Source: an uncultured Gemmatimonadales bacterium (lineage in GTDB: Bacteria; Gemmatimonadota; Gemmatimonadetes; Longimicrobiales; Gaopeijiaceae). Taken from it: a stretch of DNA of 64,000 nucleotides. The position numbers and the translations under genes are program-made. A model generated the notes under the pieces. That model worked only from the letters and a program-made list of their open reading frames with translations, was not told the origin of the DNA and did not search any database. Below are positions 51,623-55,982 of this stretch, piece by piece (position 1 is the stretch's first letter; the number at the start of each line of letters is the position of its first letter). Location: assembly GCA_963809895.1 (NCBI GenBank), contig CAWELD010000003.1, positions 2,304,001 to 2,368,000 on the forward strand, in the 5' to 3' direction.

Positions 51623-52984
51623 ATGAACGCACAGTTGCACGCGCTGCTGGACGACGTGCGCGGCAAGAATCCTGCGGAACCCGAATTCCATCAGGCCGTC
51701 CAGGAGGTCATCGAGTCTCTGGAGCTCGTCCTGGACCGGCGTCCCGAATATCGCACCTCCAAGGTCATCGAGCGGATCGTGGAGCCCGAAAGGGTGATCC
51801 TGTTCCGCGTGCCCTGGGTGGACGACCAGGGAGAGGTGCAGGTCAACCGGGGTTTCAGGGTAGAGATGAACAGCGCCATCGGCCCCTACAAGGGCGGACT
51901 GCGCTTCCATCCCTCGGTGACCCTGGGAATTCTCAAGTTCCTGGCCTTCGAACAGGTCTTCAAGAACGCCCTCACCACGCTTCCCATGGGTGGCGGCAAG
52001 GGCGGATCGGACTTCGATCCCAAAGGCAAGAGCGACGGTGAGGTGATGCGCTTCTGCCAGAGCTTCATGACGGAGCTCTTCCGCCACATCGGACCCGACA
52101 CCGACGTGCCCGCCGGCGACATCGGCGTGGGTGGCCGCGAGATCGGCTACCTGTTCGGCCAGTACAAGCGCCTGGCGAACCGCTTCTCCGGCGTCCTCAC
52201 GGGCAAGGGCCTCAACTGGGGCGGCTCGTTGATTCGACCCGAGGCCACGGGCTACGGCGCGGTCTACTTCGCCGCGGAGATGCTGGGCACCCGCGACGAG
52301 ACCCTCGAGGGCAAGATCTGCCTGGTGTCGGGAAGCGGGAACGTGGCGCAATACACCACCGAGAAGCTCATCGACCTCGGAGCGCGGGTCGTGACGCTCT
52401 CCGACTCCACGGGCTACATCTACGACGAGGCCGGCATCGACCGGGACAAGCTCACCTGGGTCATGGAGCTCAAGAACGAGCGCCGGGGGCGCATCCAGGA
52501 GTACGTGGACGAGTATCCCGACGCGGTCTACACGGCGTCCGATCCCACGGCGGGCGCGAATCCCCTGTGGGACCACGACGCCGACTGCGCCTTCCCCAGC
52601 GCCACGCAGAACGAGATCAACGCCAACGACGCCGACAACCTGCTGAAGAACGGCGTGTACGTGGTGGCCGAGGGCGCCAACATGCCCACGGTGGCAGAGG
52701 GCGTGGAGACGTTCGTGGACGCGGGCATCCTGTACGGCCCGGGCAAGGCCGCCAACGCCGGCGGGGTGGCGGTGTCGGGGCTGGAGATGAGCCAGAACAG
52801 CATGCGGCTGAGCTGGTCCCGCGAGGAGGTGGACCGGCGCCTGCACGGGATCATGAAGGACATCCACGCCACCTGCGTCCAGACGGCCGAGGCCTTCGGC
52901 ACACCGGGCAACTACGTGAACGGCGCCAACATCGGCGGCTTCATCAAGGTCGCCGACGCCATGCTGGATCAGGGGGTCGTATAG
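51623..52984 (+). CDS. gdhA: NADP-specific glutamate dehydrogenase
   Basis: [58 protein letters not shown] and KAANAGGVA. Confidence 0.96.
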
Positions 52985-53021
52985 ACGGAACGGGCCGGTG
53001 GCCCCCGGGGAGTCCGGGGGC

Positions 53022-55982
53022 ATGAAGAGCTTCTTTCATTTCTCGGAGCGTTACGGCGGCCGTACCGGCGGCTATCGGGACCTGTGTCCCGAGCAGGTGC
53101 GCCGCGTGCTGTTCGTGTCGTCGCTCTACGAGTCCTTCATCCTGGCGGAGGACGGGCACCTCCACGAACGCGTCCTGGGCGAGTTCCTGGAGACCAGCCT
53201 CCGCCAGCCGCCGGACCTCATGCGCGTGTCCTCGGGGCGCGAGGCGCTGGACGTGCTGCGCCGGGACCGCCCCCGCGTGGACCTGGTGGTCACGAGTCCC
53301 CACGTGGGCGACATGGACGCGGCGGCGCTGGCTGCCGCCGTGGACGCCGAGGGCCTGGGGGTGCCGGTGGTGGTGCTCGCGTACACGGACCGCGAGCTCC
53401 GCACCTTCCAGACATCCACCGTCTCGGACCATCTGGCCGGCGCCTTCCTGTGGCAGGGCGACGGCCGCATCCTCCTGGCCATCGTCAAGAGCGTGGAGGA
53501 TCGCCTCAACGCGGAGCACGACACCCGCATCGGGGTGCCGGTCTTCCTGGTCGTGGAGGACAGCGTCCGCTACTACTCCTCGTTCCTGCCCGTCGTCTAC
53601 TCGGAGGTCCTGAACCTGAGTCAGTCGGTGCTGGCCGAGGCCGGCAACCGTCTGCAACGCTACCTCAGGCTGCGCGCCCGGCCCAAGATCCTCCTGTCCA
53701 CCACCTTCGAGGACGCCTTCGCCGACTTCACCGAGTACCGGGATCTGGTGATGGGCGTCATCGCCGACATCGAGTTCCCGCGAGGCGACGAGCTGTCTCC
53801 CACCGCGGGCATCGACCTCACCGGCGCCATCCGGGCGCTCCAGCCCGACGTGCCGGTGGTGCTGCAGTCGTCGAATCCCGAGAACCAGGCCGTGGCGCGG
53901 CGCCTGGGGGCGGGCTTCCTCCTGAAGGGCGCGCCGGACTTCCTCCTGCAGCTCCGACGCACGCTCACCGAGCACCTCTTCTTCGGGGACTTCGTCTTCC
54001 GCGATGCCGAGGGTGAGGAGATCGCCCGGGCCAGCGACCTGAAGACGCTGGTGCAGGAGCTGCGAGAGGTCCCTGCCGAGTCGCTGGCGTACCACGCCGT
54101 GCGCAACGACTTCTCGCGCTGGCTGCGAGCGCGTGCGGAATTCGGGCTGGCCGGAAAGCTCCAGCCCCGACGCCTGGAGGATTTCGCCTCCACGGAGGAC
54201 CTGCGCCAGGAGCTGATCCGCTCCATCGACGACTACCGGCGGGAGCGGAACCGGGGTACGGTGGCGCCGTTCCGCGCCGACCTCTTCGACGGTGAGGAGG
54301 GCATCGTCCAGATCGGTGGGGGCTCGCTGGGCGGCAAGGGGCGTGGTCTGGCCTTCGCGTCGCGCCTCCTGGACGAGGTGCGCCTGGCCGACCACTTCAC
54401 GGGCCTGCGCGTGGCGGTGCCTCCGGCGGTGGTGCTGGGCACCGGCGTGTTCGAGCGCTTCTTCGAGGACACCGAGCTGCGCGAGATGGCGCTGCAGTCG
54501 GAGGACGAAGACGAGACCCGGCACCGCATCCTGGCCACGCCGCTCCCCGCCGACGTGCGCGAGGCGCTGGCCCGGGTGGTGGCCGTCGTGGACCGCCCTC
54601 TGGCGGTGCGCTCCTCGAGTCTGCTGGAGGACTCTCCCCGGCATTCCTTCGCCGGCGTCTATCGGACCTGGTTGCTGCCCAACGACGATCCGGATCCCAG
54701 GACCCGGCGACTGCAGCTCGAGGAGGCGGTCAAGCGGGTCTACGCGTCGACCTTCTCGCGCCGGGCCCGGGCCTTCCTCGACGCCACGCCCTACCGCCTG
54801 GAGGAGGAGGCCATGGCGGTGGTCATCCAACGGCTGGTGGGCGGCAGGCACGGACAACACTTCTATCCGCACATCTCGGGCGTGGCCCGCTCCCGGAACT
54901 ACTACCCGTCGCCTCCCGCGCGGGTGGAAGACGGCATCTGCGCCGTGGCCCTCGGGCTCGGCAAGACCGTGGCCGAGGGCGAGCCCTGCCTGCGCTTCGC
55001 CCCACCGTATCCAGAGCACGTCATGGAGCTCTCCACCCTGGAGGGCATGCTGGACGCCACCCAGCGCACCTTCTGGGCCATGCGTCTCGGCAGCGAGCCT
55101 CCCCCCGGTGGCTGGGCCGACGACGGTCCGCTGGTCCGGCTCCCCCTCAAGGTGGCCGAGGCCGACGACACGCTGGCACCGGTGGCGTCCACCTATTCGG
55201 AGCAGAACCAGGCGGTCTACGACGGCCTGGGACGACCTGGCACCCGGCTCGTGACCTTCGCCCCCATCCTCAAGCATCGGGTCTTTCCCCTGCCCGCCGT
55301 GGTGCGCGAGCTCCTCATCGTGGGGATGGCGGGGACCCGCCTGCCCGTGGAGATCGAATTCGCGGTGGACCTGAACCCCGCCGACGGCGGCACCCCGGAA
55401 GTGGGATTCCTGCAACTCCGTCCGCTGTCGGCGACGCAGGACGACGAGGTGTCCATGCCGGATGTGGAGCCGGAGCGCATCCTGTGCGAGAGCCCGGCGG
55501 TCCTGGGCCACGGCCACACGCGGGAGATCCGTGACATCGTCGTGGTGGACCCCGCCGCCTTCCAGCGGGCCCGCAGCGCCGCCTGCGCGGAGGCCGTGGG
55601 GCAGTTCAACGCCCGCCTCACCCGCGAGGGACGTCCGTACGCGCTGGTGGGGGTCGGACGCTGGGGGTCGAGCCAGCCCTGGCTGGGGATCCCCGTACGA
55701 TGGGAGGACATCGCCGGAGCCCGGGTCATCGTGGAGGCGGGGCTCCGGGACATCCGGGTGACGCCGTCGCAGGGCACCCACTTCTTCCAGAACCTGGTGT
55801 CGCTCAACGTCGGCTATTTCACCGTCAACGCCGACGCCGGTGAGGGCCACGTGGACTGGGACTGGCTCATGGCCCAGGAACCGGACGAAGTGCGGGGATG
55901 CGTGCGCCTGATCCGGTTCGCCGATCCCCTGGAGGCCATCATGGACGGGCGCAACCGACGGGGGGTGTTGCTCAAGCCGTAG
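53022..55982 (+). CDS. Receiver-domain / PEP-synthase ATP-grasp (PPDK_N) / putative phospho-His domain protein
   Basis: Two REC-like units, then GGKGRGL and PLAVRSSSLLEDS...FAGVY ATP-grasp motifs, and C-terminal SQGTHFF; lies 37 bp after gdhA. Confidence 0.85.
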   Translation: MKSFFHFSERYGGRTGGYRDLCPEQVRRVLFVSSLYESFILAEDGHLHERVLGEFLETSLRQPPDLMRVSSGREALDVLRRDRPRVDLVVTSPHVGDMDAAALAAAVDAEGLGVPVVVLAYTDRELRTFQTSTVSDHLAGAFLWQGDGRILLAIVKSVEDRLNAEHDTRIGVPVFLVVEDSVRYYSSFLPVVYSEVLNLSQSVLAEAGNRLQRYLRLRARPKILLSTTFEDAFADFTEYRDLVMGVIADIEFPRGDELSPTAGIDLTGAIRALQPDVPVVLQSSNPENQAVARRLGAGFLLKGAPDFLLQLRRTLTEHLFFGDFVFRDAEGEEIARASDLKTLVQELREVPAESLAYHAVRNDFSRWLRARAEFGLAGKLQPRRLEDFASTEDLRQELIRSIDDYRRERNRGTVAPFRADLFDGEEGIVQIGGGSLGGKGRGLAFASRLLDEVRLADHFTGLRVAVPPAVVLGTGVFERFFEDTELREMALQSEDEDETRHRILATPLPADVREALARVVAVVDRPLAVRSSSLLEDSPRHSFAGVYRTWLLPNDDPDPRTRRLQLEEAVKRVYASTFSRRARAFLDATPYRLEEEAMAVVIQRLVGGRHGQHFYPHISGVARSRNYYPSPPARVEDGICAVALGLGKTVAEGEPCLRFAPPYPEHVMELSTLEGMLDATQRTFWAMRLGSEPPPGGWADDGPLVRLPLKVAEADDTLAPVASTYSEQNQAVYDGLGRPGTRLVTFAPILKHRVFPLPAVVRELLIVGMAGTRLPVEIEFAVDLNPADGGTPEVGFLQLRPLSATQDDEVSMPDVEPERILCESPAVLGHGHTREIRDIVVVDPAAFQRARSAACAEAVGQFNARLTREGRPYALVGVGRWGSSQPWLGIPVRWEDIAGARVIVEAGLRDIRVTPSQGTHFFQNLVSLNVGYFTVNADAGEGHVDWDWLMAQEPDEVRGCVRLIRFADPLEAIMDGRNRRGVLLKP

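Follow-up and report, generated by a model that had tools for sequence, protein, structure and literature searches.

Why should a gene for glutamate dehydrogenase (GDH) be closely followed by one that joins receiver domains to the ATP-driven part of a dikinase? The question is raised by a stretch of DNA of 64,000 nucleotides, here called the window, from an uncultured Gemmatimonadales bacterium (assembly GCA_963809895.1, contig CAWELD010000003.1, positions 2,304,001 to 2,368,000); coordinates below are those of the window. Its gdhA gene (51623..52984, + strand) encodes a hexameric NADP-type GDH of 453 residues, which matches Pfam ELFV_dehydrog and scores 753 bits against NCBIfam PRK09414 (NADP-specific GDH), above the cut-off of 536. 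After a spacer of 37 bp (52985..53021, +), with a purine-rich stretch upstream of the ATG, comes an open reading frame (ORF) of 986 amino acids (53022..55982, +), whose product reads receiver, receiver, helical domain, ATP-grasp and His swivel, and the two genes probably form one operon. The 986-residue protein is a member of a widespread, apparently uncharacterised family in which gdhA is the conserved partner gene. The engine, that is the ATP-grasp with its His domain, is of a type known from VadK, RPH and phosphoenolpyruvate (PEP) synthase; what appears to be new is a sensor-equipped ATP-grasp/phospho-His family tied to GDH, and the protein probably represents a previously undescribed on/off control of a central enzyme of nitrogen metabolism.

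An initial annotation, made from the letters of the window, had described this ORF behind gdhA as a protein of five parts, and its coordinates and named motifs all lie where they were placed. An AlphaFold2 model based on an alignment of 129 sequences (the query, 108 of 150 representatives after partial and fused ones were dropped, and 20 of 120 close matches) has a mean pLDDT of 90.5. The fourth part is a PEP-synthase/RPH-type ATP-grasp (residues 426-805; 54297..55436, +), which bears out the dikinase-type nucleotide-binding domain of that annotation: Pfam PPDK_N (PF01326) matches at E 3e-35, and the ATP-site residues K439, R530 and Q798 are kept in all 129 sequences, E779 in 128, R800 in 125 (with lysine in four others) and T549 in 121 (with serine in the other eight). 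K439, R530 and T549 have counterparts in the aligned motifs of PEP-synthase-type grasps, and E779 and Q798-R800 parallel their EW...QARP motif. In RPH (PMC4844700), Lys22, Arg117 and Thr136 place the polyphosphate and a histidine accepts the beta-phosphate; these three residues correspond to K439, R530 and T549, with an Arg-to-Thr spacing of 19 in both proteins. RPH is also the best fold match of the modelled grasp (residues 416-805 on 5hv1, Z 26.2, root-mean-square deviation (rmsd) 2.6, 285 aligned). At the level of profiles, the nearest families are RedH, PigC and RPH, which are small-molecule ligases and phosphotransferases, and a PPDK profile (PRK05878) matches at E 2e-5 versus E 2e-19 for a PEP-synthase-type profile.

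The chain closes with a divergent phospho-His swivel domain (residues 810-986; 55449..55979, +), which is recognised by its predicted fold and not by sequence, and which carries the motif S-x-G-[ST]-H-F-F with His920 (55779-55781). Modelled alone, this domain has a pLDDT of 92.9, and in the model His920 stands at the start of a helix between two strands, at a distance from the next strand equal to that in swivel domains of related genomes; it appears to superpose on the carrier histidine of known swivel domains. The histidine, whose conservation had been anticipated, is kept in 135 of 139 aligned rows of a phmmer set that was not motif-selected (the patterns of the locus scan included the His motif, which makes the scanned loci uninformative on this point). 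When the domain alone was compared with 48,161 chains, His-carrier swivel domains made up seven of the top nine matches, led by the pyruvate kinase C-terminal domain (Z 7.6, rmsd 2.8, 106 aligned), maize PPDK (Z 7.5), RPH (Z 7.2) and the PPDK carrier (Z 7.1), with Enzyme I swivels at Z 6.2, 5.9 and 5.8. The joint superposition of grasp and C-terminal domain is stronger evidence than the lone-domain match: in the model, residues 426-986 superpose on 8-466 of PEP synthase 2ols (Z 26.7, rmsd 4.2, 360 aligned) and residues 427-986 on 7-508 of PPDK 1kbl (Z 17.9, rmsd 4.8, 350 aligned), and 335-350 residues align in 1kbl, 1dik and 2dik. With 1vbg, 2r82 and 5jvn the alignment ends near residue 803; we take these to be structures in which the His domain is away from the nucleotide site, and 2ols, 1kbl, 1dik and 2dik to be those in which it is at the site. 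The initial annotation had reached the swivel through a sequence parallel drawn by eye, and of that claim the fold stands, as predicted, while the parallel itself is not statistically detectable by Pfam, by hhalign or by a score test against the swivel motif, in which the segment anchored on the histidine comes 28th among 160 offsets and only the helix-strand block before it comes first (1 of 164). An Atlas search with the domain returned the family's own clusters only.

Two parts that dikinases of known function would place around such an engine are absent. The PEP/pyruvate TIM barrel, which had already been noted as missing, has no Pfam match (PEP-utilizers_C), and residue 986, the end of the chain, aligns with residue 466 of 2ols and 508 of 1kbl, before the barrel. 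A substrate domain placed as in RPH between grasp and swivel is excluded by the anatomy, in which the grasp ends at about residue 805 and the swivel starts at about 810. Pfam likewise found no PF00391 and no match of any kind in the last 180 residues of the 986-residue protein, and neither Pfam nor NCBIfam found a HisKA/DHp or GHKL ATPase domain in it, its ATP domain being the ATP-grasp.

Outside the chain, the family is marked by its gene neighbourhood. A GDH gene lies within the 6-kb flanks in 56 of 78 loci (one of which repeats an already sampled contig) and in 42 of the 54 loci with at least 3 kb on both sides, against a rough chance expectation of about 1%, and the paired genes occur in all four orientations. 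The linkage spans more than ten phyla, in agreement with the initial annotation, which placed similar proteins beside gdhA in other phyla: titles of linked loci name Gemmatimonadota, Acidobacteriota, Myxococcota, Eisenbacteria, Bacteroidota and Ignavibacteria, Zixiibacteriota, Calditrichota, Krumholzibacteria, Bdellovibrionota, Aegiribacteria and Spirochaetota. Among 121 Gemmatimonadota genomes (family call at E < 1e-25, with 17 weaker matches to PEP-synthase or receiver pieces excluded), 19 carry the family and all 19 have a GdhA-type GDH, while none of the 95 genomes without a GdhA-type GDH carries it; in the other type-A genomes of this phylum the family gene adjoins GDH in 13 of 13. Gemmatimonadota GDHs linked to type A are mostly 73-80% identical to that of the window, those unlinked 58-68%. 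Bacteroidales show a looser linkage, with GDH near the family gene in 11 of 20 loci, and in Bacteroides a PRK14030-type gdh is divergent from the family gene in 16 of 21 loci. Several loci hold arrays in which two or three family paralogues are interleaved with two or three different GDH genes (L079, L098, L106, L109 and L214).

Other neighbours recur less often, and they are enzymes of the 2-oxoglutarate and NAD(P)H node: GltA/SudA-like genes in 13 of 120 loci, SudB-like (NfnAB-type) genes in 11, KorB-like genes in 5, and also SucA. Loci with GltA/SudA-like and SudB-like genes beside the module are L062, L066, L067, L081, L084, L088, L103, L124, L130 and L213. Across the same 120 loci, neither a substrate-domain gene nor a histidine kinase gene recurs in more than three.

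Ahead of the engine, the window's protein carries an input module of about 410 residues. A pseudo-receiver (residues ~26-169; 53097..53528, +) has a weak Pfam Response_reg match below cut-off (residues 40-123) and a tandem-receiver match to 3luf and PleD; as had been described, it lacks a conserved acceptor aspartate (columns 91-92 of the 129 sequences), and its conserved residues are Y36, W144, G146, E159, D160 and N163. The second receiver (residues 172-325; 53535..53996, +), with a helical insertion, was rightly called intact: its signature (E179-D180 within the VVED of 53550-53561, D249 at 53766-53768, S283 and K302; generally E/D-D/E, Asp, S/T, Lys) is complete in 110 of 129 sequences, D249 itself is kept in 132/142 and 119/129 in two alignments, and the modelled domain superposes on Spo0F (Z 14.3, rmsd 1.9, 116 aligned). 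His920 and Asp249 occur together in 117 of 129 sequences; four others of the 129 have asparagine at position 249 with the histidine intact. Between receiver and grasp lies the small helical domain (residues ~330-410; 54009..54251, +), seen in the secondary structure of the model, with an invariant W367 and a DUF5752 match above cut-off (335-410, E 6e-7).

The receivers are not shared by the whole family. Type B is a gene pair, B1 being the engine alone (about 585 residues) and B2 the engine behind a GAF-like domain (weak Pfam match), and in four of five loci the pair lies downstream of a small GdhA_Arch-type GDH, once with a 2-oxoglutarate dehydrogenase behind it. Type C proteins (about 860 residues) have an N-terminus that resembles KaiC-like clusters, where the Atlas score of 0.83 is a lead only, and have GDH in the flanks of 37 of 80 metagenome loci and 22 of 34 with full flanks; type-A receivers occur in 0 of the 80. 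In B1, B2 and C alike the ATP-site residues and the histidine are intact, and a tree of 24 rows (midpoint root, VadK not included) places types A, B and C together against PEP-synthase-type grasps with support of 100/100. It is therefore the engine, not the receivers, that tracks GDH, and since receiver-less types retain both engine and GDH link, the receivers are best regarded as exchangeable input. The proposal that receivers stand in place of the substrate domain and accept its phosphate thus finds no support as the main reading in view of these three subfamilies, and the family probably does not exist to run a His-to-Asp relay, though one could serve as feedback in type A only. Of the two options offered by the initial annotation, a receiver-gated protein dikinase controlling GDH thus fits better than the relay. 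That annotation had also named in advance, at the level of sequence and structure, a swivel fold, a conserved histidine and a conserved gdhA linkage as points on which its proposal depended; all three are present, the fold in the predicted model.

Several individual relatives add detail to these types. The 2-oxoglutarate dehydrogenase mentioned above is a fused, Kgd-like E2-E1 protein that follows co-directional genes for small GDH, B1 and B2 (L032:2522-12122, -). One B2 engine (L034:1969-5190, -) bears a C-terminal nucleotidyltransferase domain (PF01909, E 4e-7), a feature that resembles GlnD/GlnE-style nitrogen regulation. A protein of 1523 residues (P0263) has a B1-like engine at its start and a second PPDK_N match at 941-1317; this apparent B1-B2 fusion hints that the pair works as a unit. 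In five loci (L031, L033, L034, L054 and L110), type B pairs stand beside an ORF of 287 residues with a start that looks metallophosphoesterase-like by eye and no NCBIfam match at 1e-10, which could be a counteracting phosphatase. In Bacteroidales, paralogues of 1150-1560 residues (P0208, P0174 and P0210; genomes G121, G209, G222 and others) place at least one GAF-like repeat ahead of a complete type-A protein and often form tandems with a normal copy; the repeats carry an E-R-x-K-E-L motif as in type B2.

In the mechanism that we propose, the ATP-grasp would bind Mg-ATP and His920 would take the beta-phosphate, with release of AMP and phosphate; by analogy with PEP synthase and RPH, this chemistry is very likely. 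The N-terminal module would gate the engine, through the pseudo-receiver and the phosphorylatable receiver here and through a GAF-like domain, a KaiC-like domain or no input module in relatives. Because it has no substrate domain of its own, the engine would act in trans on the neighbouring GDH and tune its activity post-translationally, a step that the gene context makes rather likely. The protein would thus be a signal-gated, VadK-like, His-autophosphorylating regulator of dikinase descent that acts directly on GDH, and we regard this as reasonably probable. The form of such control might be phosphoryl transfer to a GDH side chain or, as proposed for VadK and methylcitrate synthase, GDH binding that depends on the phospho-state; each is a tentative suggestion, and by this analogy binding without phosphoryl transfer and a protein dikinase are about equally open. 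In the dikinase form, which we put forward with caution, the beta-phosphate of ATP would pass through the cryptic swivel histidine to GDH, with swappable sensors working an on/off switch, and the protein would also be the trans-acting factor of a 1996 observation. That observation, by Baggio and Morrison and going by its title, is said to concern a trans-acting gene downstream of gdhA of B. thetaiotaomicron that affects GDH activity; reportedly, GdhA was active in E. coli only when some 3 kb of DNA from downstream was supplied in trans, with transcription unchanged. The family gene measures about 3 kb, and if this lead holds the protein would be an activator of GDH.

Candidate acceptor positions in GDH are T119, S/T189 and S393 in the numbering of the window's protein. 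Among 72 linked, 23 type-C-linked and 17 unlinked GDHs, serine or threonine occupies position 119 in 68, 17 and 5 and position 189 in 70, 19 and 8, while S393 is found in 61, 18 and 3; the 72 include a few GDHs beside type C genes, the 17 form a small set from few clades, and for plasmid records 'unlinked' means no family match within that record. The enrichment is confounded by phylogeny and may serve as a lead only. A correlation between GDH and engine identities (r 0.58) was set aside on the same ground.

A number of results weigh against direct control of GDH by such an engine. Taken alone, the swivel match stays below Z 8, with each Z individually unremarkable; PF00391 was not detected by Pfam in 85 C-terminal domains, hhalign against 29 PF00391-type domains gave a probability of 0.6%, a PDB profile search with the domain returned only VAMP7 noise, and Foldseek with the lone domain found nothing at E <= 0.001, its top rows being LD-carboxypeptidases. 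With the window's protein as query, the family is missing from 7 of 26 GdhA-positive Gemmatimonadota genomes (one of the seven, G095, being unpublished). GDH is not nearby in 9 of 20 Bacteroidales loci, 5 of 21 Bacteroides loci and 12 of 34 type C loci with full flanks, and the counts of linkage overstate independence because the genomes are kin. No GDH residue cleanly splits linked from unlinked proteins. In Bacteroides, the NADP-type (PRK14031) gdh lies upstream of the family gene in only 5 of 21 loci, at 94-5063 bp, so that the link to the 1996 observation is not assured. The support as a whole consists of anatomy, conservation and linkage, from which binding and activity are inferred.

Direct control of GDH has to be set against other uses of the same engine. 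GDH or another protein might supply the substrate-binding subunit that the engine lacks, and the engine would then phosphorylate a small molecule of the 2-oxoglutarate/glutamate node. Like a split small-molecule dikinase, which has its engine and its substrate-binding function in separate chains, such an enzyme could link ATP use to reductive amination or produce a phosphorylated metabolite. The model matches the fold of HpeI (9goj), the grasp of a split dikinase that stands in a chain of its own (Z 19.6, rmsd 5.8, 281 aligned), the nearest profiles are those of small-molecule enzymes, the engine-only B1 form exists, and GltA/SudAB-like, KorB-like and SucA genes are among the neighbours. We nevertheless think such catalysis unlikely, given that the sensor domains found ahead of the engine, be they receiver, GAF-like or KaiC-like, suggest a regulatory role, that GdhA-type GDHs without the family are common and that no dedicated substrate-domain gene recurs. 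The family differs from split dikinases in that grasp and His domain share one chain and GDH is the only recurring partner. A different target in central carbon and nitrogen metabolism, such as 2-oxoglutarate dehydrogenase or oxidoreductase, GltA/Sud or a transcription factor, would reduce gdh adjacency to shared regulation or co-transfer. Many family copies do lie away from GDH, genes of the 2-oxoglutarate node recur, and the higher identity of linked GDHs is consistent with co-inheritance; the link is nevertheless seen in every orientation, for two GDH classes and across four architectures, which is hard to explain by inertia and leaves a different target improbable.

The chain could also be a non-HisKA hybrid kinase that passes phosphate from phospho-His920 to Asp249 of the same or a partner chain, with phosphorylated receivers as output. 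The frequency of intact receivers and of paired His and Asp agrees with this, and no histidine kinase recurs as neighbour (the largest cluster occurs in 3 of 120 loci), so the receiver has no obvious donor. Orphan receivers are common, however, and types B1, B2 and C dispense with the receiver while keeping engine, histidine and GDH link; type C loci hold no type-A receivers, and four homologues pair Asn249 with an intact histidine. A hybrid kinase is accordingly quite unlikely. The enzyme named in source annotations, ordinary PEP synthase, has the source names and the PF01326 match on its side. It is scarcely credible all the same: the chain stops where the barrel would start, NCBIfam PEP synthase models score 42-70 bits against cut-offs of 598-883 (TIGR01418 42 against 740, PRK06464 44 against 598), the family occupies its own side of the tree, and the window's genome encodes two separate PF00391 proteins. 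The anatomy, which lacks a barrel, contradicts an ordinary PEP synthase outright.

Comparison with known systems shows features that the family shares with each and features that set it apart. Its nearest analogue in concept is VadK (Rv1127c) of Mycobacterium tuberculosis, a barrel-less PPDK derivative of actinomycetes of about 50 kDa; as described in PMC13400623, VadK shows an Mg-ATP-dependent gain of 80 Da on the catalytic histidine, pulls down the neighbouring methylcitrate-cycle enzymes and regulates neighbouring metabolic enzymes post-transcriptionally, for which the authors propose control by binding, and the paper makes no mention of receiver, glutamate dehydrogenase or Bacteroides. Both proteins consist of an ATP-binding and a His domain without a pyruvate barrel, but the family described here scores nearer PEP-synthase/RPH-type grasps, its His domain escapes PF00391, and its N-terminal sensors and association with GDH are further differences. 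With PEP synthase and PPDK (2ols, 1kbl) it shares a His swivel directly after the grasp, the ATP-site residues and 350-360 superposed residues, and it departs from them in lacking the TIM barrel, in the receivers and helical domain placed in front, in its His motif and in its scores far below the NCBIfam cut-offs. RPH and PigC/RedH likewise end in a His swivel, but their central substrate-binding domain has no counterpart in the 986-residue protein. Tandem receiver input is known from PleD and 3luf, where the output is GGDEF or DNA binding rather than a dikinase-type engine; here, no cognate histidine kinase was found nearby. The family is thus neither PEP synthase/PPDK (no barrel) nor RPH/PigC (no substrate domain), nor a canonical histidine kinase.

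The family is large: 7989 of 8000 scored candidates match the 986-residue query, and 1151 representatives at 50% identity do so at E <= 1e-30, the closest named relatives being Gemmatimonadota. It is present in 136 of 151 Bacteroidales genomes searched and in 54 of 61 genomes of one genus, named Bacteroides via cluster members; no relatives were found in the viral contigs searched. Thousands of full-length homologues, the closest aligning from residue 1 onward, exclude a shadow ORF or chance, and a resistance enzyme was rejected, there being no sign of such a role. Source annotations read 'phosphoenolpyruvate synthase', as the initial annotation had stated, and also 'PEP/pyruvate-binding domain-containing protein', 'histidine kinase' or hypothetical. 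A literature search, with most subscription papers and supplements outside its scope, found no paper describing the family.

GDH stands at the junction of carbon and nitrogen metabolism. If the proposal is right, a dedicated ATP-driven GDH controller would add a new layer of nitrogen regulation in the dominant gut order, human-gut Bacteroides included, and in its protein-dikinase form it would mean dedicated covalent control of GDH in over ten phyla and in roughly nine of every ten Bacteroidales. What the 2026 VadK work reported for a single pathogen-associated protein would be extended to an apparently independent family that is equipped with sensors and spread over many phyla. The 'PEP synthase' label, which is very common and can distort metabolic models, would need correction, and the old trans-acting-gene observation becomes directly testable. 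In Bacteroides, GDH is a main route of ammonia assimilation (PMC4539542).

The window's genome holds a single copy of the family gene. It also encodes a second GDH, of the small type, and a third, distant ELFV dehydrogenase (G000:C3:1937063-1938289, C3:1218470-1219447), neither with a family gene beside it by tblastn. Between 51300 and 56200 no promoter-like site was found, and terminator-like matches were at chance level (two found, 1.4 expected); one RNA run, which contained 8% of the words and yielded contigs of mixed organisms, was uninformative. The module is flanked by a glycerate kinase-type gene (DUF4147/MOFRL; 50005-51450, -) and a gene for a peptidase M49-like lipoprotein (56063-57724, +), which did not come out as conserved partners. 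Further out, at 43353-49546 and 61525-63981, the ORF list shows by eye several pairs of PadR-like and ABC-permease (MacB-like) genes.

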